A DNA stretch of 20,000 nt. Source: Psammoneis japonica (taxonomy: Eukaryota). The notes under the pieces are model-generated. The model made no database searches. It was not told the DNA's origin and saw only the letters and a list, made by a program, of their open reading frames with translations. A program made the translations under genes and the position numbers. Shown here one piece after another: positions 75-20,000 of the stretch (its first letter is position 1; every line of letters begins with the position of its first letter). The stretch covers positions 416,415 through 436,414 of the forward strand of contig QPGO01000060.1 of the NCBI GenBank assembly GCA_008632985.1, in the 5' to 3' direction.

Positions 75-3000
75 CTATATATGAAACGCAGCACGGGCGA
101 CAATATTACAGACGATAGCAGCCTTGCTACCGAATGACTTCAATCTACTCTGTTCGTTGGACTCGGCATCTTCGTTCTTCTCGGAGTTTGAGGCGTTTTC
201 ATCGTTCTCAAACGAGCTGGAATCCTCTATATCATGCGTCTCGGATGATTTGGATTTCAAAGATGCCAAACGACCAACTAATCGCTTCCGAGAACCTCTA
301 TCAAGAGTTACAGATCCAGTGTCTGACCGAGGGGAGCGTGGAGCGCGGGCATCACTTCCATTCAACACCTGTTTAGAATTTTCAACTGGATCCAACTTGC
401 GTGATATCATTCTCAATGATTCCAAGCTTTCAGCCCGGGCGCTCTTTATTTTCTCGGAACCAAGGTTGAGTTGGCTATCAGGTCTTAGAGAATGGCCTGT
501 TTCCCCACGTAATCTCTCGTTTGGATTTCTCATCATACCTGCACCAAACGGAGTATCTTTCGTCTCATCTCTTTGATCAGTCTCGCTATTGAGCATTCCT
601 CCTCCGAGCGCACCTGGCTGGGATGGAAACTGCGTCACTCCCTCTGCCTTTTTAAGATCAGGCAGGCCAGTTGCTTTTTCTTTTGCTAGGTTTAGCGTGT
701 CCTTTGCGGGATCGATGGAGGAAAACGAGCTCGGAAACGAGGTGGCCGACTCCTCTCCTCCTTCAGTCTCGCCAGAGCCGGAAAGTCGCGACTCGGCCGT
801 CTTTTGAAACATACCTCCGCCAAGTGCACCTGGCTGGGATGGAAACTGCTTCACCCCTTCTGCCTTTTTGAGTCCAGGGAAGCTACTTGACTTTTCCTTT
901 GCTACCTTCATCGCATTCTTTGCAGGATGATCGCTCGAGGAAAACGAACTCGGAAATGAAGTGGTCGATTTCTCTCCTTTTTCGGTAGCGCCGGAAAGTT
1001 GTGACTCAGTCGTCTTTTGAAACATGCCACCACCCAGCGCACCTGGGTTGTCCGACGCGCTAGCCTTCGGTTCTGACTTTCCGTTCTTATCAAACGTTTG
1101 AATCGGCTTCTTCAGCATGTTACTACCGAATGTACTTGGCTTCTGCGTAAACGAGATCAGTGGCTCTGTCTTCCCGTTCTTAACCGGTGTCTCGAAAGGA
1201 TTCTTTTGCGTACTACTTGGGAAAGAACTTGGCTTGTTCTCAATGGAGCTCAATGGCTGAGTCTTCCCGTTCAAAGCCGGTGACTCAAACGGACTCTTCG
1301 ACATGCTACTCCCGAAGGAACCTGGCTTTGACGGCTGAGTCGTTCCTGACTCAAATGACATCTTTTGCGCACTGCTAGGACCGAGTGAGCCTGATCCATC
1401 TTTTGTCGAATTCAACGGATCCGTCTTCCCGTTCGCACTTGTTGAATCAAACGGGCTCTTCAGAGTATTTCCGCCGAACGAACCTTGCTTTAGAGGTTGT
1501 TTTTCCCCGCCAGCGTTCGATGCTCCACTATTAAATGCGCCCGGTATGCCAGTCCCTAACTCCCCTGGTTTGGCCTTTTCGTTCCGTAATGATACATCCG
1601 GTGTCTCGATCGATTTATTATTCAACATCTCCCCATTGAGAGCACCTGGCTGATTTGTCGGTGAAGGAAAAGGTGCGGCTTTCCCGGTCGTAGCGGATGG
1701 AAAGCTCGGATTTCTAGCTCTTCCAACATTCGTTGAACTCAGTGGATCTAAAGACCCATTCCGATTTTCCTTTCCTATGGTCGCCACAGGAGACCCGGTC
1801 GTTTGCAGTGGTATTCCACCACCTGCTTGATTTTGCATTGCAGTGGGATTTGTTGGCCGTATGGTACTTGACGGTTGCGAGTTCTTAGGTATTCCTCCAC
1901 CTGCTTGATTCTGCATTCTAGACGGAGGCGATTTCTGTACGGGGTTGGGCGATTGCGCGTTGTTCGATATTCCGCCGCCGGTTTGATTCTGCATTGCACT
2001 CGGAGGCGCTCCAGTATTCGGCGCTTGGGCGCTGTTTGGTAATCCACTAAAAGATCGATTTTGCGTTTCTTTTGGAGGCGTCGTCGCTCCAGTATTAGGC
2101 GATTGCGTGTTGCTCGGCATTCCAGTGCCTGCTTGACTTTGCATTGCGGTTAGAGGTGTTGTCTGCACGGCATTAGACGATTGCGCATTGTTCGGAATTC
2201 CACCACCAGGTTGATTCTGTATGGCGGATGGTGGCGTCGCCACTCCCGCATTAGGTAGTTGTGCGCTATTTGGTATTCCGCCGCCAACCTGATTTGGAAT
2301 TCCAGACGGAGGCCGTTTCTCTTCGGGTTCACCAGGCAATCGGGCGTTAAACTTTTCAAAAGGATTTCTCGGTTTAGGCGGAGGCTGTGCTGGATTGGAA
2401 GTCTGACTTTGAGACGGAAGACCTGGCTGCATATTATTCGGTTGTTGCTGCGCCATGGTCTTTACAGCGTGCTCTGTCATTTGTGTGGCCATTTCCTTTG
2501 CCATTTTCATCATCATTTCCATATCAACATCATTCCTCTCCTTTCCCAGCTGTGAAGGAATAGGAGGGGGCGGTGGCTTCGGCGGTGCCTTCTTTACTGG
2601 TTGTTTCGCTATCATTGCTGCTTCTCTTGCCTTTTTCATCCCCATTTTAACGGCATAAATCTTTGCTTCTTTGGAAGGACCAAGCCTCCTTGCTTTTTCC
2701 TCCGCAAGTCTCGATGCTAGTGCCGCGGCTACCTTTACGATATCATCTTCGGTAGACATTGGAGTGGGCTTCCCAATCATAGCCTCATCCGAAACGGCTT
2801 TTGCCGCTACTGCAATCTGCTCCTTGGGACTGAGCTTTTGAAATTCAACATCCTGGGCCATTTTATCCATGTACTGGAGCGCTTTCAGTACTTCTTCGTC
2901 TTCGTCCCTGACCGCTTCAACAGTGATTGCCTCTGATATGAGTGACGCTTCAGGTGACAACGCCGGTGGCTTTTTGTAATCTGCATACTTATTTCCTCCC

Positions 3001-3743
3001 TTTGAGATTGACCACCACGGGATTTCTTCCTCATCAGCAGTAAACAAACCTGCTCCCAAACCGCCGAAAGAATGTTTCGGTGGGGGCAAATTGCCTGATT
3101 CCTGTCTAGGAGGGGGCAACCCTGTTGGTATCACGGGCGGCTTCGAGGATGAGGTGGTAAAGACCGGTGTACTTGTTGCAGACTGTGTCCGTTGTTGTGG
3201 ATAATTCGCCCCTTGGATCGGATGAACGGCTTCACCGGATTGAATATCTTCGCTCGTGCCCCCCTTTGCGATGAAATCTCGATCCTCTGCCGATTTCGTA
3301 TGCCAATTCTTATCTGCCCCACCCGGTTTAGCCCATGATGGCATCCTGTATTTTACACCACCATAGTCCTTTGGCTCGTCCAGATCGGGAACACTTTGTT
3401 CCTCACCTCCATAAAATTGATCTCCACCTCCATAAAATTCTTCGGAAGCAGTATTTTGATCCCCCATGTTGCTGCTAATGTGATCCCCCATATCACTACT
3501 TTGCCCCTCCTGAGCCCATGCAGCATTACTATATAATGATTCAAACGAGGTGCTTTGGCTCTGATCGGCTCCTGCGTAATTCTCCGGATCTTCCTGATTG
3601 TTTGTGGAAAGCGAATCAGCGAAATTCGAGATGAAGCATCGCGTCCAGAATCTGCTCAATTTCCCTGCCGGCACAAAAGCATCTGATGACTGTGATGAAT
3701 AAGTCATCAGCATTACTGAGAGTGCATATGACCACCGACCCAT
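75..3743 (-). CDS. Large low-complexity (P/S/G/Q/N-rich) repeat protein with signal peptide and putative plastid transit peptide; paralog of the 4593-7517 gene
   Basis: Uninterrupted 1222-aa ORF. N-terminus MGRWSYALSVMLMTYSSQSSDA|FVP resembles the diatom ASA|FAP cleavage motif. Contains three internal repeat families and one copy of the helical module also found in the neighbour. The 3' end may be spliced and continue beyond position 1. Confidence 0.85.
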   Translation of the reverse strand: MGRWSYALSVMLMTYSSQSSDAFVPAGKLSRFWTRCFISNFADSLSTNNQEDPENYAGADQSQSTSFESLYSNAAWAQEGQSSDMGDHISSNMGDQNTASEEFYGGGDQFYGGEEQSVPDLDEPKDYGGVKYRMPSWAKPGGADKNWHTKSAEDRDFIAKGGTSEDIQSGEAVHPIQGANYPQQRTQSATSTPVFTTSSSKPPVIPTGLPPPRQESGNLPPPKHSFGGLGAGLFTADEEEIPWWSISKGGNKYADYKKPPALSPEASLISEAITVEAVRDEDEEVLKALQYMDKMAQDVEFQKLSPKEQIAVAAKAVSDEAMIGKPTPMSTEDDIVKVAAALASRLAEEKARRLGPSKEAKIYAVKMGMKKAREAAMIAKQPVKKAPPKPPPPPIPSQLGKERNDVDMEMMMKMAKEMATQMTEHAVKTMAQQQPNNMQPGLPSQSQTSNPAQPPPKPRNPFEKFNARLPGEPEEKRPPSGIPNQVGGGIPNSAQLPNAGVATPPSAIQNQPGGGIPNNAQSSNAVQTTPLTAMQSQAGTGMPSNTQSPNTGATTPPKETQNRSFSGLPNSAQAPNTGAPPSAMQNQTGGGISNNAQSPNPVQKSPPSRMQNQAGGGIPKNSQPSSTIRPTNPTAMQNQAGGGIPLQTTGSPVATIGKENRNGSLDPLSSTNVGRARNPSFPSATTGKAAPFPSPTNQPGALNGEMLNNKSIETPDVSLRNEKAKPGELGTGIPGAFNSGASNAGGEKQPLKQGSFGGNTLKSPFDSTSANGKTDPLNSTKDGSGSLGPSSAQKMSFESGTTQPSKPGSFGSSMSKSPFESPALNGKTQPLSSIENKPSSFPSSTQKNPFETPVKNGKTEPLISFTQKPSTFGSNMLKKPIQTFDKNGKSEPKASASDNPGALGGGMFQKTTESQLSGATEKGEKSTTSFPSSFSSSDHPAKNAMKVAKEKSSSFPGLKKAEGVKQFPSQPGALGGGMFQKTAESRLSGSGETEGGEESATSFPSSFSSIDPAKDTLNLAKEKATGLPDLKKAEGVTQFPSQPGALGGGMLNSETDQRDETKDTPFGAGMMRNPNERLRGETGHSLRPDSQLNLGSEKIKSARAESLESLRMISRKLDPVENSKQVLNGSDARAPRSPRSDTGSVTLDRGSRKRLVGRLASLKSKSSETHDIEDSSSFENDENASNSEKNEDAESNEQSRLKSFGSKAAIVCNIVARAAFHI
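590..1050 (-). repeat. Coding tandem repeat, ~70-aa unit (PGALGGGMFQKT.ES.LSG...TSFPSSFSS..PAK....AKEK...P.LKKAEGV.QFPSQ), 2 full copies plus a partial
   Basis: Seen in the translation. Also visible in DNA, e.g. gcacctggctgggatggaaactgc occurs near both 610 and 826. Confidence 0.9.
1070..1485 (-). repeat. Coding repeat, ~31-aa unit (SFGS...K.PFE....NGKT.PL.S), about 4-5 degenerate copies
   Basis: KSPFDSTSANGKTDPL, KSPFESPALNGKTQPL, KNPFETPVKNGKTEPL and KKPIQTFDKNGKSEP in the 1222-aa ORF. Confidence 0.85.
1803..2310 (-). repeat. Coding repeat, ~26-aa unit (MQNQAGGGIP.NAQSPN....TPP.A), 6 copies plus a partial
   Basis: IPNQVGGGIP, IQNQPGGGIP, MQSQAGTGMP, TQNRSFSGLP, MQNQTGGGIS and MQNQAGGGIP (twice), spaced about 26 aa apart. 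Confidence 0.9.
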
Positions 3744-4592: not shown

Positions 4593-7517
4593 CTACGGCG
4601 CAACATCCTTCATGCCGCCCTTCATATCATCATCGTGACGTTTCTTGAGAAACTTTGATATTCGAGACGCCATTCCTTTAGTCTCGATACTGTTTGTTTG
4701 CTTATGGGATTTGGCAGTCGCGTCGTTTGATGGAGGAGACTTTGGTTCTGGGGTGCCATTAATTGCCGCTGCATTTGCTTTTGCAGCTTCGTCTAGCTTT
4801 GGCGGTTTCTCTGGCTTCGCGGCTTCCTTTTTCTGCGGTGGCTCTCTCCAGAAGGTTTCAGCTCCATAAATGGGGCTCTCGGCACCAAACTCTGGAGTCA
4901 ACACGTCTGGTTCGGCTTTTTCAACAACCTGTGGAAACGGATTAACATTCTTGGACATTCGCACAGAGGCCACCGCCGCAGCAACACGTTCTTCCGTGCT
5001 CATTTGACGAAACTCCTCATTGTCCGCCATTTTCTCCATAAACAGCTTCAAGGCTGCCGCAACCTCTTCCTGCTTTTCCTTTTCATCGAGGGGAGTGTGT
5101 GGCACCAATGAGTCCTGGCCGGTATTATCTGGCATTCGTGGTGTCAACAGCGCCTGTCCTGTTCTTCCTTCCAAAGGATCGTCGGGTTTCAAAGATGAAG
5201 CCTTTTTCTCGTTTTGTCTTGTAATATGAGGGGGTGGTCCTGTATGCTCATTCGTGTCAACCACAAACGCCTCTGGCTGCGGCGACGCGCTCAAGCGTCG
5301 ACGATCCATGACATGATTAGGCTGCATCAAACCCGTCGGCACAGTGCTACTACCTCGGCGCACCGCCGCAGCGGCATAGGCAACCCGCTGATCAAACGGG
5401 AGCCGCTGAAACTCGGCATTGTTTGCCATTTTCTGCATGAAAAAGTCCAAAGCCGCCGAAACCTCATCGTCCGAAGCGTCATCATTCCCAGGTAGATACT
5501 TTGGTTCACCGCGTCTTCCGTTTCTTGCCTCGTGCGACGCAATCCGTTGACGCACCGCGTTGGCAGCATAGGCAACGCGCTGCTCAAAACTCATTTGCTG
5601 GAATCTGCCGTCCTCTGCCATTAGCTTCATTAAATCCAACGCGGCAGCCAGCTCGTCGTCTGGGACATCAACCTGTCCATAGACATGCTGTACACATTGT
5701 TGGGGTGGCGCTTGTGAGGCATCAAACTTTGGAGGATCGGCTGGTAAAGAGGATGCAAGATTGTGGTGCTTGGGTGGTGGCGACTTTGGAGTGTCAATAG
5801 TGTCGTCAAAGGATGGTGCATCAGGAGAGAGCGACGCGGGAAGCTTGTGTCGTACGGGCGGCGGAGGCTTTACCGTAGGTACGTCTAACCTTGGAGCATC
5901 CGCCGATAGTGACATGGGCAACTTGCGCTCTCTTGCTGGAGGCCGTTGCAACAAATGCTCAGGAACGTCACAAAGTGGTGGATCCGGCCTGAGCGACGCC
6001 GCAATCTGCAAGCCATCGCCAAATCTGGGCGCCTGCACCGTGTGCGGCATTCCGTATTCTGGTCCAGCCACATCCTGTGGTTCATACACCACGCCGTACA
6101 TTTGAGGATCCGGAGGAAACTCGGGTATCCATTCCTGCTCTTCTTGCAGGCGCTGCTGTTGGTATTGCTGTTGCTGATGATACTGTTGCTGCTGGTAGAA
6201 CTGTTGCTGCTGAAACTGCTGTGGCGGCGGCGCGCGCGTGTATTGCTGATATATTTGTTGAGCAGACAAATTGTCACCCATTTTGGGAGCATCTGGTGTT
6301 AGAGACACTGGCATGGTAGGCCTATACCTCTTGGCAGTGGTTGGCGGCCCATTAATGTGCTCCTTTTGATCGCACATGGGCAAATCGGCCGACAGTCCAG
6401 CCGGCATTTCGGGTGGACGTGGCGGCTGCATTGGTGGCTGTAGTGGCGGCTGCGGTGGTTGAGAATGGTAGGCTCCGTCAAAGCGTGGATCGTGCGCCTG
6501 TTGTTGTGACTGTATGCCTCGGGCATAGACCGAATGGTCCACTCGAGATGGATCACGCCATAGAGTCGTGGGCACCCTGCGTTGCTTTGGCTGAGTAACA
6601 AAGTCCGACCGGTCAATTTTGGGCGCGTCGGGTGGAATCGACCGGTGTGCTTGCGTCGAAGAAAAGCGCTCTTGATTGTGACGAGGTTCGGGAGTCCGAT
6701 GTGCCTCGTGAGGCATCCACTCTTCTGGTACAACATGGTAGTCCTTACCATTCTCGGGTCGGTACGGCGACTGTGACTCGGCCCAGTGCTTTCGAGCTGG
6801 TACAACGTTCGGATGAATTGGCTCGTCTTCATCCCTCAAGAGCCTTGGTTCATCGTGTTGAATCGTGGGGGTCTTTGGCAAGTTGCGTCCGCCACCACCC
6901 GTGCCATTGCGGTGCAACTGATTCCACCGATTGTACATGGCATCACCAGCCTTGTGCGCCCATTCGGGAACCTTGTACTCAGCTTCCACCTTTGGTGGCT
7001 TGGGAATGTCTTCGTCTTCGTCGTCGTCTTCTTTCATGACGGGTATCGGCACGGGTGCGGGTGCCGGAGGAGGCGTGTACTCGACCGTAAGCGGAGGGTC
7101 ATCCTCGCCTGAAATCACAGACATTTGTGCGTCTTCCGCCATGGCCATTTGAACCCACTCAGGCAGGTTGGGATCAATTTCAGGCATGACTGGAACCTTA
7201 TTTCCCTTGTCTTCCTCAGAGATGATGGCGGTGCCACCGTTAATCTCAATGTCATGGCGCGGAGGAGGATCGGCAGACAACACATCATGGTTTTGCTTTT
7301 CAATATCGTCGGCTTTCGAAACATAATCGGCAGCCATTCTCTGAATCCAATCGGGAATGTCTTCACCCTCTGGTTGAGGATGATTTCCCGAAAGAGAATC
7401 GGCATAGGTTCCGAGAAAGAAGCAGCTCCTTGTACGGCATGATAGCGATGACGGTACAAAAGCGTGTGATGTCGGAAGCAGAAGGAGGACTGAAAGTGCG
7501 TACGACCACCGGCCCAT
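4593..7517 (-). CDS. Proline-rich, largely disordered repeat protein with signal peptide and putative plastid transit peptide; paralog of the 75-3743 gene
   Basis: Uninterrupted 974-aa ORF. N-terminus MGRWSYALSVLLLLPTSHA|FVPSSLSCRTRSCF is a hydrophobic stretch, an A|F cleavage site and an S/R-rich segment. Contains SLxxDxP repeats, a Q/Y tract and three helical modules. Confidence 0.88.
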   Translation of the reverse strand: MGRWSYALSVLLLLPTSHAFVPSSLSCRTRSCFFLGTYADSLSGNHPQPEGEDIPDWIQRMAADYVSKADDIEKQNHDVLSADPPPRHDIEINGGTAIISEEDKGNKVPVMPEIDPNLPEWVQMAMAEDAQMSVISGEDDPPLTVEYTPPPAPAPVPIPVMKEDDDEDEDIPKPPKVEAEYKVPEWAHKAGDAMYNRWNQLHRNGTGGGGRNLPKTPTIQHDEPRLLRDEDEPIHPNVVPARKHWAESQSPYRPENGKDYHVVPEEWMPHEAHRTPEPRHNQERFSSTQAHRSIPPDAPKIDRSDFVTQPKQRRVPTTLWRDPSRVDHSVYARGIQSQQQAHDPRFDGAYHSQPPQPPLQPPMQPPRPPEMPAGLSADLPMCDQKEHINGPPTTAKRYRPTMPVSLTPDAPKMGDNLSAQQIYQQYTRAPPPQQFQQQQFYQQQQYHQQQQYQQQRLQEEQEWIPEFPPDPQMYGVVYEPQDVAGPEYGMPHTVQAPRFGDGLQIAASLRPDPPLCDVPEHLLQRPPARERKLPMSLSADAPRLDVPTVKPPPPVRHKLPASLSPDAPSFDDTIDTPKSPPPKHHNLASSLPADPPKFDASQAPPQQCVQHVYGQVDVPDDELAAALDLMKLMAEDGRFQQMSFEQRVAYAANAVRQRIASHEARNGRRGEPKYLPGNDDASDDEVSAALDFFMQKMANNAEFQRLPFDQRVAYAAAAVRRGSSTVPTGLMQPNHVMDRRRLSASPQPEAFVVDTNEHTGPPPHITRQNEKKASSLKPDDPLEGRTGQALLTPRMPDNTGQDSLVPHTPLDEKEKQEEVAAALKLFMEKMADNEEFRQMSTEERVAAAVASVRMSKNVNPFPQVVEKAEPDVLTPEFGAESPIYGAETFWREPPQKKEAAKPEKPPKLDEAAKANAAAINGTPEPKSPPSNDATAKSHKQTNSIETKGMASRISKFLKKRHDDDMKGGMKDVAP
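4959..5660 (-). repeat. Three copies of a ~37-aa predicted helical module (E.AAAL..(F)M..MA....F.......RVA.A...VR)
   Basis: Copies at about 5550-5660, 5358-5471 and 4959-5069. A related copy, DEEVLKALQYMDKMAQDVEFQKLSPKEQIAVAAKAVS, lies at about 2789-2900 in the paralog. Confidence 0.88.
5720..6640 (-). repeat. Dispersed short motif (S/G)L(S/T/R/P)(P/A)D(A/P/L)P..D, about 7 copies, plus a polyQ/Y tract at about 6150-6220
   Basis: SIPPDAPKID, GLSADLPMCD, SLTPDAPKMGD, SLRPDPPLCD, SLSADAPRLD, SLSPDAPSFD and SLPADPPKFD. Outliers LSADPP and SLKPDDP occur elsewhere in the ORF. Confidence 0.85.
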
Positions 7518-9038: not shown

Positions 9039-10337
9039 ATGGGATCCCAAAACGCTGGTGCCTCTGACTCTAGTCAACCATCGACAAAAAAGGAGCGTAA
9101 GAAGCAGGCAGCAGCTCGGAATGCCGTCAAGACCGATCTGACAGCTCTGCAATTGGCACCGACAGAAGACACCACAGACAGTTTCTTCTTGCCAGAGCAA
9201 TTATTGCCGCCTCACATTCAATACGCAGACGACAAGGACGAGTTTCGTGATTCTGTCACGTGGAGATTTCATTCTGTGGCCGGTTATATATTTCATTGGA
9301 AAGGGACTGTGACTCAGTACAGTTGGCCCAAGCTCATTCTGTATGCCATTTACGTTGCGATCGTTTGCATTATAGCGATTGTCAATTGTCCCGAGGAGGA
9401 GCAACTAGCGGATCCTTATGATGCCCCGTTTCGATGTCGGATTGGGTACGAATACACAGACTTTATCGGTGAATCGGTTCTGATTTGGTTTGCATTTTCC
9501 GCATTTCTCTTTCAGAGTTTTGTCAATGCCGGTTTAAGGCGATTTGACAAAACGTTGACTCTTGTTCGTCGCGTGCAGGGCCGGTATCACGAGTTGGGAT
9601 TGCTCTTGCATTCGCATGCGCTACCACCCGCCAGGCATACGCTTGTTGTGATTCGCCGATACATGTTGGCCATGGTATATCTCTTGTTTGACGATCCAGT
9701 CTACGGTCCTGTCAATGGCGAATTCTTGCCATTGGTATCAAAGATACTGGAACCGGAAGAGTACGAAACGATCAGAAACATTAAGAAGCCGTCAGACCGA
9801 GCTCATGCAGTCATGACTTGGATTCTCTCTCTTTGTGAATCCGCAATCAATGCAGATTGCAGCAATGGTCAAGAGCCTCTCTTTCAAGATACAAACGGTA
9901 CACTCGGGTTTCAGATCGCTCGGTGCCTGGAAACTCTGCGAGCAACTGTTGGAAGTTTAACAGACAGCTTGGATGACGCCATGCTACCATTTCCCTTTTC
10001 CCATTTGATCATTTGCAATATTTATCTGGAATTCGCTGTGCTTCCATGGGCCTCGATGGGTCATCTTGGATACTGTATGATTCTTGTTGCCACTATTTAC
10101 TTTTGGTTCTTGGATGGTATGATCACGTTTGTCTTTCTTGTCGATGATCCCTTTGTGAGCAAAATGGGTGGAAGGAAGATTGAGCCACTGATTGACATTC
10201 ACAAAATTATTGCAGAAATAGCCAGTGCCTTGCCGCGGCGATATCCAACTGCGTATGCGACGAAACCAAGGTCGTGCTTGGAAATTATCAGGAGTCCTCC
10301 TACAACTCCTGTGGGAGAAAAGGCGAAACCTTACTAG
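9039..10337 (+). CDS. Bestrophin / UPF0187-like membrane channel protein
   Basis: 432 aa. Two N-terminal hydrophobic segments followed by F..N.G..RF, a soluble helical region, LPFPFSHLI with two more hydrophobic segments, and DDPF. This is the bestrophin-family topology and motif order. No obvious signal peptide. Confidence 0.8.
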   Translation: MGSQNAGASDSSQPSTKKERKKQAAARNAVKTDLTALQLAPTEDTTDSFFLPEQLLPPHIQYADDKDEFRDSVTWRFHSVAGYIFHWKGTVTQYSWPKLILYAIYVAIVCIIAIVNCPEEEQLADPYDAPFRCRIGYEYTDFIGESVLIWFAFSAFLFQSFVNAGLRRFDKTLTLVRRVQGRYHELGLLLHSHALPPARHTLVVIRRYMLAMVYLLFDDPVYGPVNGEFLPLVSKILEPEEYETIRNIKKPSDRAHAVMTWILSLCESAINADCSNGQEPLFQDTNGTLGFQIARCLETLRATVGSLTDSLDDAMLPFPFSHLIICNIYLEFAVLPWASMGHLGYCMILVATIYFWFLDGMITFVFLVDDPFVSKMGGRKIEPLIDIHKIIAEIASALPRRYPTAYATKPRSCLEIIRSPPTTPVGEKAKPY

Positions 10338-13062: not shown

Positions 13063-13980
13063 ATGAACAATCATTCTCGTCGTCGGCGGCGGCGCTGTTG
13101 CACCTTTTACGACATGAAGCACTCCAATAATGCGGCAAGGATACGGCTCTGGCTTCGAATGAATCAAAACGCGATTCAGTCATGTGAAGATTCTGGAGAC
13201 TTGGTGATAAAGACATTAATGTTGACTCATGCCGACATTGAAGCAGACAGTTACGGACAAGTCAATCCACTGAAAAAGGTTCCTGCGCTTGTGGTGGAGA
13301 TGGAAGACGATGCTGGCGAAACGACAAAGAAAAGCAATCTACATCTATTTGAAGCCTCGGTTATTATCGCATACCTTGAGGATGTAGTTCCAAATTCAGT
13401 GTTCAAAATGAGTGAGGACAACTACTCAACACCCGAGGATCGTGCACTGTTATCTTTGATTGTTCGATGTCATGATTTGTACGTTTCAAGTCCAAACTGT
13501 ACCCAACCAAACTTTTCACATACCCAGGGATGCATGTATCTTGACCCCATGCCAACACCCTTTACGCCCGCAAGACGGATCATGGACACCAAAACACGAG
13601 CTGCCAAATTGGCCGAGCTACACCAGCAACTGCGTTGGTTGGAAAACACGGCAAGGTTCATGCCATATTTATGCGGCGAGCAAGTTTCGCACGCCGATTT
13701 AACTTGGTTCCCAACGGCCGTGTTTATGGAACTGCTCCTCCCCAAGGTATTTGATTGGACGCCGATATTTTCTGTTCTCGACACGGATGGCAGCGAGACG
13801 TCCTCGGAGTTTCCAAAACTTGCGAGCTGGTTCAAAACGTGCATGGAAAATCCGCACTTTGCTCAGACTCGGCGTGAGATTCGTGATACCCTTATAGATC
13901 AAGCAGAACGAGGCAGATTTGCTGGTGTTAGAAATGACGTGAAGGCCCATTGGAATGACTACAAGTGGAAGTATATTTGA
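13063..13980 (+). CDS. Glutathione S-transferase family protein (true start uncertain, possibly an upstream exon from 12879)
   Basis: GST N-domain motifs YDMKHSNNAARIRLWL, VNPLKKVPAL and LFEASVIIAYLED. GST C-domain motifs PYLCGEQVSHADLTWFPTAVF and FPKLASWF. Confidence 0.92.
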   Translation: MNNHSRRRRRRCCTFYDMKHSNNAARIRLWLRMNQNAIQSCEDSGDLVIKTLMLTHADIEADSYGQVNPLKKVPALVVEMEDDAGETTKKSNLHLFEASVIIAYLEDVVPNSVFKMSEDNYSTPEDRALLSLIVRCHDLYVSSPNCTQPNFSHTQGCMYLDPMPTPFTPARRIMDTKTRAAKLAELHQQLRWLENTARFMPYLCGEQVSHADLTWFPTAVFMELLLPKVFDWTPIFSVLDTDGSETSSEFPKLASWFKTCMENPHFAQTRREIRDTLIDQAERGRFAGVRNDVKAHWNDYKWKYI

Positions 13981-14718: not shown

Positions 14719-16968
14719 TTAGTTGTCTCCGTACTTCTGTAAAAGGCGCTCCAACCGTTGTCTTCTCTTGATCTCTTCATCTTGCTCCTTCGTTTTGGGC
14801 AGTTGCACAGCAACGGGAGGATGAGTTTTTGGCTTGAAGGATTGCAACTGTCCACTACCCTTGGTTGCATTTCGCAAGCCATGAGCCACTTTTTCAAGTC
14901 GTCTTGACTTGCGGCTGCCGCGTACAACACAGCCGCGTCCTTGTCGTTGGGATTCACGTGCAAGATGAACGCAAAGGGGTGCTTGGGGAATTCTGTGGTT
15001 TGAGACACGGTGACACACCAGTGGTGATGGAACCAATCGTGCCCTTGACTTTCTGGTGAGGGCCATCGCTATACGTAATTTGGTAAGTGCCCAGACTTTG
15101 GTACAAGCAAAAGTATCGCTTCTTCCAACCCTTGATAAGCCCCTCTTGATCACGCTTGAGCAAGTAACCAGATGCTATCTTCTCCGAGTCCAACACATGA
15201 AGTGATCTCGAAACGTCCATCAGAGGAGTCCTGTTGGTAGCTGCCTTGGTATCTTCATCCTTATCTGACCGCTCGACAACTAGCGGAAACTTGTTTATTC
15301 TTGAACGTCCGTGCTCAGACACGTGCATGGGGCGGGTGGTGTTTTGCCCGTGCATGGTGGAAAGTTGATGCTCGAGTTCTGCAATGCGCTCTTCCTGGAA
15401 TTGAACTCGGCTTTTGTACTGCTTCTTCTGGAGTTGGGCCTCCATTTCTCTTGCTTCTACTTGAATCTCAAGCAGTTTGGCACGGTCACGTTCCATTTTC
15501 AGCTGTAATTCAGAGTTGCGAAGCCGATCATTAAGACTCTTGCTATCGCCATGGGAGCTGTGTGTCCCCACCGACTCTTCCGAGTCTGTAGTAGTGGTAG
15601 TGACTGTCTGAAGCGTCTTTGTGCTCCCGTGTTTGAGACAACGGACCACTTGCCCTGTTGTCCAGACTTTTGCACGAGCGTCACGTTCTTCATAAGTTCC
15701 ACGAGTTGATCCTTCTGGAATTCACATGTAGAGCTGAGTTGCGATGCCTTGCAGGTTTCATCGCTGAGTGATCGGTACAACTTGGCAAGCTCCTTGCGAA
15801 GAGCCTCCTCTACCTCTTCCAGCTCCCCAACTCGTAATTCCAAGCTGGCAATTGTGCTTTCGTATGATTCCCTCTCAAAGTTGTTGCTGGAAAACAAGCC
15901 ACTCTGAGAGCAGCTCCCCGAAGAGCTACCGAGTAATGTCATGGCGCTGAGCTGAGTGCGGAGAGAAGATATTTGCCCAACAAGTTCCGCATGAGCCTCG
16001 TCATTGCATGCCTCCTCGAGGGTGGCTCGGAGTTCTGACCGAGACGTTCCCTTGAGATTGGTTACGAGTTGCAACTGCCTGTTGAGTCGATCGATTTGAT
16101 CTTCTTGCGACTGGATGGTACCTTGCATTACTCGGAGTTGTTTGGAGAGTACAGACATGCCAGAGGCGTTTGAACCGCTACCACACGAGCCGGTTGTAAA
16201 ATCGCGGTCGTGAGCATGGTTCACATCATCTGTAAAAGCTAGTGTTCCATTTTCTCGATGGTACTCCAAATGGTCTCTCAAGTCAGAACCTGTCGACGGT
16301 CTCCGAAGCTGACGAAAAGATGATTTTCCAACGAATGTGTCGTGAAGAGGCTCGTTCAAGTCTTTCTCTTTCTCATTGTCGCTGTCATCATCGTGCTCGT
16401 CTTGCAACTCTCCGGATCTTTCTTCTTCTTCCTTCATGTTCATTTCACAAACTTCAATGCCCCGTTCTGCCACTTGGTTCTCTGGATCTATTTCTAAAAC
16501 ACGCTGATATGATTCAATCGCAGGTATCCATAATTCCAGTTTTTGAAGAGCTACAGCCAACCGCGAATGCCCTCGGCAATCGTTCGGACACGCTTCAACG
16601 CATGCTCGGTGCATCCTCCAAGGCTTTTCTGGACGACCCAGTGCCAAATGAGCAGCACTACGATTCGACAGCAAGACATGGTTCGTCGGATCTAGCTCTA
16701 GAGCACGGGTATATCTGGAAATGGCCTTGTTGTAGTCTCCAGAACGAAACGCGTAATCTGCTTTGCGTTTGTAATTGTCTCGTTTCTCCTCCAATTCTTC
16801 TTTGGAACGCACATTGTCCTTTTGAGAGGACTTTGTTTTTCGTTCCCTCCGGTGTCGAGATGAATGGTTCGCTTTCCTATTCGCACCTTGCTGATCCCCG
16901 TCAGGTCCAATGCCAATCTCTCCCGGAACATCCTTCCACGGATCCATGTTTGCTATTCCAAACGTCAT
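14719..16968 (-). CDS. TPR + coiled-coil + C-terminal PH-domain protein (~750 aa reconstructed), interrupted by about 5 small indels (assembly errors or pseudogene)
   Basis: STI1-like TPRs (ADYAFRSGDYNKAISRYTRALELDPTNHVLLSNRSAAHLALG; GHSRLAVALQKL...AIESYQRVLEIDPEN), long heptad-rich segments, and a PH domain (ASGYLLKR...GWKKRYFCL...HPFAFILH...LYAAAASQDDLKKWLMA). These lie across four overlapping ORFs that join by 1-2 nt indels. First ATG at 16968; reconstructed stop at 14719. Confidence 0.8.
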
Positions 16969-17564
16969 GTTGTTGTTTATTTTCTCTGTAGTAACGCTCT
17001 CTCTCACACACTTTCTCTAAAGTTCGCTTTTTCAATATCTCCAATGAGAGTTTGTTCCTTGTTGTTGCTGGAATCCCACAATGGAAATCAATCGTTTGTT
17101 ATTATAAGCAACGGGGTATGAAACAAAATTGCTTTTTGTAGAAGCCCTTCGAAAATGGAGTCGTGGGTCGCTGAGTTCACCTTTGCAACCGTCCGTTGGA
17201 ACAACGACGTTTTGTTCACAGCTTGATAGTCATTGATCACTTATAAATGTTTGACTCCAGTGATGAAGTTATTTGAATCATGTATAAGTCATTCTCGTGT
17301 GATATACCTTCAATGGCGTTTAAAGGCACATGAATGAAGTTTATATGACAATGCAGCTGTCCGTTGAAAATTACATAGGAAAGTCAATGTACAATGGACA
17401 GAAAGGTGCTGTCATTAGTGTCATTCAATTTCAAATTCTTGTTTTCCGCGAAAAAAAAACGACGTCTGTCACTGTCAGACATCCAGCGCAACACTGGTCC
17501 ATCTCTGGCAGAGCTTCTCCAGTCTTGCTAACAACGAAAAGTAGAATGACTTGCTAGAGAGATA

Positions 17565-20000
17565 AAGTGCAAGCCCTTCAGGGAGGGAGGGGGGGGGGGG
17601 GGGCTCGGACCACTGGCCTGGAACAGACAGACACAGCAGGGAGGAAAGAAGTGTGAGGCAGGGGCACATCTCGGGGTGCAGATGTGCTCTCCAGAGTGCA
17701 CAGCTGCAAGTGGGAGTGGCTTTGACACAGTGCCACAGTCTGTGTGGTGTGTGAGCTGTGCACATGATTTGCAGCATCACAGCACTGAGATTGTTCCATT
17801 GGTTGCCTGTGTTGCTGGAGGCAGAAAAAGATGATGGGCAGATGTGCTGCACTCTTTTGCATGTGCGATCCAGTGCTGCGACAAAAAATGTGCACATGGA
17901 AGGCATTGTGTGAGATGCTTGTTGGACAGCAAATGAAAAGCTGGTTGCATGCAATGGCACAGCTGACACACCACTTGCAGGGAGTCTAAGAAAAAGCTCC
18001 AGCGTGGCAGCGCTGGGTTGGCTTTGAGGAAGGTGGCTGCGATGTTCTTGTGGAGAATGAACATGGAGTTGGGGTGCCAAATGTGTGTGACAAGCAATGT
18101 CAGAAATGGGGCTGGGCACAACTGTTGGAGGAAACCAGCAACATGTGGAATGGCAGGGAAACAAATGACTGGCAATGTTTCTGTCAGCATCCAGTCATTT
18201 TCGTCAGCACATTTTGTTGCAGCAGCAAATGACGCTGATGTTGTTGTGCCCATGATCCCAGCTCAAACAAAGAACAAACATTGGCACAGCCAATCATTGA
18301 TGGCTGTCTTTTCAGAACTTGCCAAAACAGCACAAGTTGCTCTGATGCCACAAGCCAGCAGTCACGTTGGAGCAGCGCTGGGAGGAGAAGTGGCTGTGAA
18401 AAACCCATTGTTTTGGGTGAAGACCAGATTCACCATGATGCACAGTCAGCAACAATGGCTGGGGCACAATTTTGTGTACAACCAAATTCTTGTCATTGTG
18501 TTGTTTCCCAGCTCAGTCAGTGTCAACTGTTGGTCTCTCATCAATGAAGGGTGTTTTTGTCAGCACTCTCCTTGCCTTGCAGGTCACCTCCATCAAATTG
18601 CTGCCAACATTCAAGGGAACATGGCTCATTTTGCAGCCCTCCTCAAGGGGGGTTGTGGGACAGCCTCCCTTTGGGGCAATGAAAAGAGGTCCTTTTTCCA
18701 ATGGGGTGGTCACCCAACCATGGCTGGGTTGTGTNGGGACGCGAGGTCATTGTCATGAAGCAAGAAAGCAGCTTGGGGTTGTCAGTTGAAACTGGGTGGG
18801 GGTCAGTTTCAGGAGGCAGACTTGGCAGTGGTGGGAGCAGTGGCTGTGGTTGTGACAGTTCTTCTTGGTGTGGTTGCAGCGGCTTGAGTGGAGGAGGCTC
18901 TGATGGCTGCCATGTTCATGGTGGCTTGAGGAGTGGCAGGGGGAGTGTGATGGCATCCCTGAGGTGGGAGCACAGCTCAGAATGTTTGGGTGGGGAAGCC
19001 CAGCACTCCTTTTTACAGGATGCAATGGTTGTCCCTGCAGCAGGCAAAACATGTCTGAGTGTGACATGGAGGCACGACAGAGGTGTGTTGGAGGATTCCA
19101 TTTTGTGTGTGAATGAAAGGTCCCACCATGTGCACTGGCTTGGAGGGGTGGCCAGCTCAGTTGGATGGNCATGATGGGAGGAGGGAAATGAATTAGAGCT
19201 TGCACATCTTCTGGGTTGTTTGCACTCTCCATCTTTGTTGTTGTCACCTCATCACCTTTTGAACCACCAGCTGCATCATGATCATCGCTCTTGTCATTGC
19301 CGCACCCCCCATCATCTTCTTTCTCTTTGTCTTTTTGGCAGAGGAGCTGCACAAAACAGTGACAGAGGCAGCAGGGTGAGCACAAAGGGTGTGGAGTTTG
19401 ACACATGCAACACAGCAGCAACAAGAAAAATGGCTCAAAAGAAGGGCAAGAACTGGACTGACAGGAAGCAACCAGCACAGCAGTTGGCAAAAGCACAAGC
19501 ACCAGTGTTGGAGCTCAGATGATGATGACAAAGAACAAAAGTCTGGCCCAGCCAACTCTTGCAATTGCATCATCTGGTCAAGCGGGATCCTGGCCAGTGG
19601 CTGGCATCATGACAAGCTGGGGATGATCAGCGAGGAAAACATTTTAACAAAAAACTTGACCAAGCAATGAATTTGACAATGAAAGCACCTTGTGATGTGC
19701 AAAAGGCTTTTGTCTGTCTGGCTTTGCAGCGACAAGAAGGAAGGGCAAAGTTTCCTGCAGCAGCGCAAGCTCTTTGTTCTCTGGCAAGGGGTCATTTTGT
19801 GGTTGCAAAAAAATCATGTTTTGCACAACTGACCATCTGTCACAGTGTGACAACACATCCATCAAAAGGAAAAGGGAGCCCTTGACCACCACAGCGCATT
19901 CTGTGACAGGCGAGGCTCCTGCTGCTGATGAAACACTGTCTGCTGCTGCCAGCACAAGGCCAGCATCAAAAAAGCTGCTCTCCTTTTTCAGAATGCTTGT
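17565..20000. mobile_element. Heavily mutated repeat or transposon-derived sequence (family not identifiable), depleted of TpA and CpG and rich in TpG/CpA; runs off the window end
   Basis: Abrupt dinucleotide shift. Only fragmentary ORFs rich in C/H/W/M and nearly free of Y. Two N bases (18735, 19169). TE identity is inferred from the mutation pattern; no RT, integrase or transposase motif was recognised. Confidence 0.55.
17581..17603 (+). repeat. Polypurine / G-tract GGGAGGGAG15 at the compositional boundary
   Basis: Read directly from the sequence. Confidence 0.95.

Follow-up and report, generated by a model that had tools for sequence, protein, structure and literature searches.

Context-specific decay of silenced DNA, as in CpG decay and repeat-induced point mutation (RIP), underlies the disabling of mobile elements and the evolution of base composition. 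To our knowledge all of its known forms begin with the deamination of cytosine and push G:C pairs towards A:T. RIP, which is found in Neurospora and other ascomycetes and depends on methyltransferases of the RID/DNMT4 family acting in a sexual phase, requires duplicated DNA and converts CpA to TpA, raising TpA and lowering CpA and TpG. CpG decay, as seen in vertebrate genomes and methylated transposons, produces a CpG deficit with a TpG and CpA surplus and leaves TpA untouched. Cytoplasmic RNAs and RNA viruses present a milder suppression of CpG and UpA, in which CpA and UpG are raised. Here we describe a non-coding block at the right-hand end of a 20,000-nucleotide stretch of Psammoneis japonica DNA (contig QPGO01000060.1, positions 416,415 to 436,414; hereafter the window, in whose numbering positions are given) that has lost almost all of its TpA together with most of its CpG. 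The block shares with RIP and CpG decay a change that is regional, transition-only and context-specific, yet it belongs to neither.

The block, the sequences at its left edge and the few TpA and CpG steps that remain within it are as follows, X1 being the sole public sequencing run found that contains words of the window.

17604..20000, unstranded: TpA- and CpG-erased, CpA- and TpG-rich non-coding block, ending only because the window ends
17581..17603, plus strand: G23 tract, with GGGAGGGAGG just before it, forming the left edge of the block (Tandem Repeats Finder (TRF): period 1, 23 copies)
17008..17564, unstranded: AT-rich spacer (GC 0.39) with normal TA and CG, the final TA at 17563 and the final CG at 17535
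17987, 18477, 19014, 19194 and 19645 (span 17987..19646), unstranded: residual TpA steps, 17987 being TG in run X1
17606..19912, unstranded: residual CpG steps (n = 23), of which 18376, 18740 and 19631 are TG in run X1

Positions 17565-20000 comprise 2436 nt (A 618, C 517, G 719, T 580, N 2) and contain five TpA against the 147 expected from base composition (observed/expected ratio (o/e) 0.03) and 23 CpG against 153 (o/e 0.15). The left flank (17,564 nt) has a TpA o/e of 0.56 and a CpG o/e of 0.97, and its per-base rates predict 88 TpA and 140 CpG for the block (Poisson P = 2e-31 and 1e-34 respectively); the minimum over all 2436-nt windows of the flank is 59 TpA and 111 CpG. Runs without TA reach at most 227 nt in the flank, compared with 537 nt in the block. 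CpA and TpG are both in excess, with 269 CpA (2.05x; composition predicts 131) and 286 TpG (1.67x; composition predicts 171), while ApT (o/e 0.80) and GpC (o/e 1.24) are near normal and ApA (o/e 1.22) shows no depletion. Calculated in 500-nt bins, the TA o/e falls from 0.48 at 17001 to 0.18 at 17501 and then to 0.00-0.06, a step rather than a gradient. Once dinucleotides are accounted for, no tri- or tetranucleotide is off by more than about 3 standard deviations, and beyond the dinucleotide level the block looks random and fits old neutral DNA.

Transitions preserve the purine/pyrimidine class of a base, so that a conversion of TpA and CpG by transitions predicts a CA + TG surplus balancing the TA + CG deficit, whereas avoidance of the two dinucleotides through transversions would have lowered the density of pyrimidine-purine (YpR) steps. 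The block has 0.239 YpR steps per nt and the flank 0.240. Relative to flank rates the block carries 198 additional CA + TG (555 vs 357) and 201 fewer TA + CG, and the observed counts are those that would follow if roughly 94 % of the TA and 84 % of the CG in host-like DNA had become CA or TG. Were the block born free of both dinucleotides and then left to drift, C>T changes at CpA and TpG should make TA at least as frequent as CG; only 5 of the 28 residual TA + CG steps are TA (binomial P = 5e-4), so that TA was actively removed, and faster than CpG, or else hardly ever created. The ratio TA/(CA+TG) is 0.009, and steady-state arithmetic gives a rate of A:T>G:C change at TpA about 55 times (roughly 50-100 times) that of the reverse. 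We estimate that the corresponding CG/(CA+TG) ratio of 0.041 is about that of ordinary methylated DNA near equilibrium. We consider it roughly an even bet that the block is non-coding, silenced DNA whose self-complementary YpR steps have both been converted by transitions, CpG through deamination of 5-methylcytosine (5mC) and TpA through a TpA-specific A:T>G:C process.

Much of this had been anticipated by a first-pass annotation made by a model from the letters of the window. Its five TpA positions and its total of about 23 CpG are exact on recount, and the free use of TA and CG in the left-hand DNA, the abundance of TpG and CpA and the regional nature of the pattern are all borne out; the pattern is also sharply bounded, with a step at the G23 tract. 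It had also observed that TpA is more depleted than CpG, that CpG decay alone is insufficient to produce this and that RIP predicts a gain of TpA, and these points stand. Its proposal that TpA had become TpG or CpA fits the transition arithmetic, which would be expected were the change to run in that direction.

A second block with the same signature was identified through a gene of the window with numerous homologs in diatoms.

13063-13980, plus strand: glutathione S-transferase (GST), zeta/maleylacetoacetate-isomerase-like, with many diatom homologues
L008 2570-3220 (= L009 2055-2671): second block, 651 nt, with TA o/e 0.06, CG o/e 0.41, CA 2.0x and TG 1.9x

Named matches of the window GST come from Cylindrotheca (the closest, 55 %), Conticribra, Thalassiosira, Cyclotella and Seminavis, in agreement with the diatom host assumed in the first-pass annotation, and the best overall match stands at 77 %; the GST sequence of the window itself was absent from the matches in a 5.8-billion-cluster database. 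An alignment of 27 GSTs led to 34 metagenome loci totalling 149,784 nt, which were scanned with 300- and 500-nt windows, flagging those with (TA+CG)/YpR < 0.15. One further region among the 34 loci fell below this threshold, L008 2401-3200 together with its counterpart in L009, and 300-nt windows below it marked two blocks only in 170 kb. The second block contains three TA, where 53 are expected from composition and 39 from its flank, and 12 CG, where 30 and 26 are expected respectively; CA amounts to 74 vs 51 and TG to 80 vs 45, with 0.26 YpR steps per nt. L009 is the same locus as L008 in a separate assembly, the two being 95 % identical overall and differing in the block by four substitutions, one of them TA/TG. 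The sequences of the L008 block and the window block are unrelated, and searches of the L008 block against Pfam and Rfam returned no matches.

The L008 block lies about 750 nt downstream of a GST with 72 % identity to that of Thalassiosira profunda, and on the strength of this identity its source is assigned to a centric diatom distant from the organism of the window. The process is hence not peculiar to the latter, and the recurrence of one signature in an unrelated block of another diatom lineage favours a biological process over an artefact or a one-off foreign insert. Within L008 a TA-free core (~2386-3220) sits inside a broader CG-poor domain (~1950-3400), which ties the loss of TA to CpG decay; the boundary is sharp on the right, where a (CTAG)n array lies, and graded on the left. 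Two such arrays, at L008 2067-2102 and 3236-3263, bracket about 1.1 kb containing the TA-free core. Farther left, at L008 2096-2390, where the effect is partial, 11 of the 14 surviving TpA are TAG. A 34-nt tandem duplication lies within the TA-free block at L008 3051-3118, its copies differing at one CpA/CpG site, and L009 is shorter by 34 nt somewhere within L008 2600-2799.

To assess the physical reality of the window block we compared it with contigs of run X1, which contains 70 % of the sampled window words; no RNA run containing window words was listed among the public runs. Two further features bear on this comparison.

15499..17007, minus strand: TPR-repeat gene with normal dinucleotides (TPR_1/TPR_2, E 1e-12; TA o/e 0.34-0.52, CG o/e 0.74-1.13)
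18736 and 19170 (span 18736..19170), unstranded: single N calls (n = 2), the only Ns of the window, both in the block

The start codon of the TPR gene points toward the block and the G23 tract lies about 560 bp upstream of the gene; the tract could be a domain barrier, the terminus of an element or an assembly join. X1 contigs match 15011-17573 without a single substitution but for 7 gaps (k-mer depth 55.3); over 17612-19993 they reproduce the block, from which they differ by 16 substitutions and 29 gaps (depth 57.8). Contig depth is not a measure of copy number. Run X1 has fewer TA and CG in the block than the window does, A>G at 17988 losing a TA and C>T at 18376, 18740 and 19631 each losing a CG. 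The higher mismatch within the block could result from poorer assembly on modified DNA, from quicker evolution or from a different strain. Both contigs stop in the G tract, contig 1 about 29 nt beyond 17573 and contig 2 about 34 nt short of 17612. At its other end the contig bearing the block runs 2343 letters past the end of the window, and the first 30 of these, those that were seen, are without TA or CG; the block is at least 2.4 kb long within the window and its total length is probably 4.7 kb or more. We regard it as genuine nuclear DNA of the diatom.

Neither coding potential nor a relationship to other sequences could be detected in the block. The longest stop-free frame is 263 codons, compared with 187 ± 40 in dinucleotide-preserving shuffles, and period-3 power is 2.5 vs 3.3-41.6 in the five open reading frames (ORFs) tested. 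A scan of RNY codon phase for ancient frames was set aside as uninformative, since real genes themselves were not picked out by it. None of the six frames of the block, translated with stops as X, had a credible Pfam match (the best being DUF2173 at E 0.077), no homologues were found of ORFs 18753-19502 (minus strand) and 18018-18758 (plus strand), and phmmer with a 798-residue minus-strand frame against 1.84e9 protein representatives gave 0 matches. Rfam gave no match in the block below E 0.77; a single chance-level miRNA match falls in the spacer. An exact 25-mer of the block had 0 matches in either metagenome_contigs or viral_contigs.

Apart from the G tract no tandem repeats were found in the block by TRF, and dispersed direct or inverted repeats amount to short chance-level pairs, with no long terminal or inverted repeats. 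Cryptic microsatellites were ruled out as the cause of the pattern by TRF in combination with the tri- and tetranucleotide statistics. An unmutated ancestor, sought in purine/pyrimidine space, did not rise above chance level in either the 20-kb window or the 34 metagenome loci. Protein domains and terminal repeats, by which a relic of a transposable element (TE) might be recognised, were not found in the block, which is cut by the end of the window. Rewriting may have affected about 12 % of the bases in it, and it is possibly an unrecognisable mobile-element relic. Of the interpretation offered in the first-pass annotation, the pattern and its fit to the transition arithmetic hold, whereas the term 'repeat-directed' is unsupported: no other copy was found in the window, even in purine/pyrimidine space, the k-mer depth is the same as in the single-copy flank, and TE domains are missing.

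Set beside the known systems, the block resembles RIP in being regional, sharply bounded, transition-only, restricted to one dinucleotide context, apparent on both strands and non-genic. It departs from RIP in that TpA stands at 0.03 and CpA and TpG at about twofold, the reverse of what RIP brings about. RIP acts on duplicated DNA, and no duplicate of the block was found in the 20-kb window or the 34 loci. A net change of TpA in the A:T>G:C direction lies beyond what cytosine deamination can produce. The likeness to CpG decay lies in the CpG deficit (23 vs 140-153) and its TpG and CpA surplus and in the nucleosome-scale spacing of the residual CpGs; unlike in CpG decay, TpA falls below CpG in both blocks (0.03 vs 0.15 in the window and 0.06 vs 0.41 in L008). 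The residual CpGs are preceded by G in 14 of 23 cases and lie within CAGCG in 8 of 23. They show a period of about 172 bp (p 0.010 with all 23, periods of 80-400 being tested against random YpR sites), which is on the scale of the nucleosome repeat and offers a weak hint of nucleosome-linked methylation. The five residual TpA sit in the opposite phase half of this period.

Under the reading of the block as silenced DNA subject to two conversions, nearly all of its TpA and CpG would have become CpA or TpG by transitions on both strands. The loss of CpG would be the ordinary deamination of 5mC in a CG-methylated, silenced domain, and that of TpA would require a second process within the same domain, changing A:T to G:C specifically at TpA. 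Candidates include a TpA-specific adenine deaminase, an oxidised or otherwise modified thymine at TpA that mispairs with G, and T:G-biased mismatch repair in methylated chromatin. The last of these would have parallels in the very short patch (VSP) repair that drives CTAG loss in E. coli and in TDG/MBD4 repair, both being 5mC-associated, T:G-specific systems that drive T>C in a fixed context, although we know of no TDG/MBD4-like activity at TpA in diatoms. PMC4041421 reports aberrant TDG/MBD4 repair that creates CpG from TpG and CpA, a context unlike the TpA>CpA/TpG change of the block.

A single enzyme could also serve for both losses, as 5mC in CpG and T in TpA are each a 5-methylpyrimidine followed by the purine complementary to it. 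An oxidase of the TET/JBP-like kind, or some other activity directed at 5-methylpyrimidines in palindromic YpR steps, might cause 5mC to miscode as T and T as C, and such an activity would halt at CpA and TpG, which would no longer be substrates. Passages of PMC9998398 report that diatom TEs are CG-methylated, that DNMT5a maintains TE methylation in Phaeodactylum, that in other algae DNMT5 is correlated with methylation of linker DNA and that 31 of 60 diatom species have DNMT4 genes, related to RID and of unknown function. We would put forward only tentatively, as a minority view among those we entertain, the broader claim that diatoms, both pennate-like and Thalassiosira-like, possess a chromatin-domain-targeted hypermutation with no described counterpart that erases CpG and drives TpA to TpG or CpA to completion.

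Several observations weigh against this account of the block. The direction of the TA>TG/CA change is derived from composition and was not directly observed. A YpR density near 0.25 is expected of any balanced, unordered purine/pyrimidine sequence, so that its constancy between block and flank is supportive but short of decisive. No strand clustering of CA and TG was detected (runs test z = -1.42), and there is thus no sign of a processive single-strand deaminase, while the undepleted ApA (1.22) is unlike the WA signatures of ADAR or Pol-eta. The ~172-bp period of the residual CpGs weakens to p 0.03 with the 20 CpGs common to X1 and to p 0.16 after de-clustering, in which close pairs are merged. 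Eleven transitions separate the window from X1 in the block, one at TA and three at CG; with 555 CA/TG in about 2380 nt, random transitions predict 2.6 of each, and the polymorphism neither supports nor refutes ongoing loss. A reading of these differences (1 of 5 TA and 3 of 23 CG) as ongoing loss was dropped, the neutral expectation being matched. Only one further block was found in the 150 kb of the 34 loci, many of which are non-diatom. No X1 contig spanning the G tract at 17581-17603 was found, so that the junction between normal DNA and the block depends on the assembly of the window alone, and X1 itself possibly derives from the same sample as that assembly.

It is unlikely, in our judgement, that the pattern reflects constraint, the block or its RNA being selected against UA and CG in order, for instance, to escape a nuclease that reads these steps, or the block being a non-autonomous mobile element purged of them over replication cycles. 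An o/e of 0.03 is far past any viral or mRNA suppression known to us, and per-site selection on about 230 non-coding sites would need great strength. Nothing in the block looks conserved but the ban on TA and CG, its higher-order composition being random; it is without ORF or period-3 signal, Rfam match or homologue, and a k-mer depth equal to that of the flank gives no sign of a multi-copy family. Constraint would nonetheless accommodate the sharp edges, at the G tract and at the (CTAG)n array of L008, as those of an inserted unit, as well as the mere four substitutions between the L008 and L009 blocks. The symmetric loss of both self-complementary steps with a rise in CA and TG is moreover qualitatively that named in the title of PMC3829696, on the suppression of CpG and UpA in cytoplasmic RNAs and RNA viruses. 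The dinucleotides lost and gained in such RNAs are those of the block; their bias, however, is moderate and kept by selection in functional coding RNAs, whereas the loss in the block is near-total and unaccompanied by any coding or RNA signal.

Somewhat less probable again is that the block was born with its composition, as a piece of a donor genome or a polymerase product, whether aberrant or untemplated, that was biased against TA and CG, entered at the G tract and then drifted. The block is well described by a Markov chain of first order in which two steps are forbidden, the boundary at the homopolymer is abrupt, and nothing similar emerged from 1.84 billion protein representatives, two ORF searches and two DNA scans. 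The YpR density and k-mer depth are however those of the host flank, TA is rarer than CG, which is the opposite of drift from a clean start, and the L008 block, set within a more extensive CG-poor domain of its host whose left edge is graded, looks like the product of decay in place. No genome or polymerase of such composition is known to us.

We attach little credence to a third alternative, in which the transcript of an element underwent A-to-I editing at UpA by an ADAT/TadA-type deaminase and was fixed by reverse transcription, CpG decaying after insertion. A one-strand change of this kind predicts TG greatly in excess of CA, whereas 286 and 269 are seen, a gap smaller than the 171 vs 131 of composition; the two steps lack strand clustering; and no reverse transcriptase, integrase or other retroelement domain, long terminal repeat or poly-A was found in the block. 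Sharp edges would suit an inserted cDNA, and a deaminase strict for U at position -1 does exist, in the Tad2/Tad3 mRNA editing of fungi (PMC11156358, PMC11087585 and PMC10962958), whose product reads as TpG; there, in contrast to the strand-symmetric DNA of the block, editing takes place in RNA hairpin loops on a single strand and is non-heritable. A technical artefact of basecalling, polishing or misassembly, whether a false poly-G join or miscalls on modified DNA, is the least probable of all, for although both Ns of the window and an excess of mismatches to X1 (16 substitutions and 29 gaps, against 0 and 7 in the flank) fall to the block, the G tract is unbridged in X1 and X1 is maybe not independent of the assembly, X1 contigs show the block with even fewer TA and CG, L008 and L009 carry the same signature in two other assemblies, and a false join would relocate the block in the genome but cannot create it.

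No description of the joint loss of TpA and CpG in diatom or other algal DNA was found in the full-text literature, subscription journals being mostly outside this search, and the loss of TpA is accounted for by no mutation or repair pathway that we found described; the pattern is real and probably a hitherto unreported variant of hypermutation in silenced DNA. If the conversion of TpA by a regional A:T>G:C process is true, it would constitute a new mutational mechanism in major marine primary producers and would imply that TpA is the target of a DNA modification or a repair bias not yet described. A (TA+CG)/YpR ratio below about 0.1 could in that case serve as a signature by which silenced diatom domains are mapped without a methylome. 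Should selection maintain the pattern instead, the implication would be that diatoms have a factor able to recognise TA and CG steps. The block also has a consequence for annotation, as two of the three stop codons cannot occur in TA-free DNA, and spurious ORFs result.

Elsewhere in the window, two long minus-strand ORFs, 75-3743 (1222 aa) and 4593-7517 (974 aa), are intron-free and have period-3 signals of 33 and 42 respectively. Neither matches a Pfam family at E ≤ 0.01, and both are likely lineage-specific diatom genes. The plus-strand ORF 9039-10337 has a weak resemblance to bestrophin (E 3.5e-4, under the Pfam cut-off).

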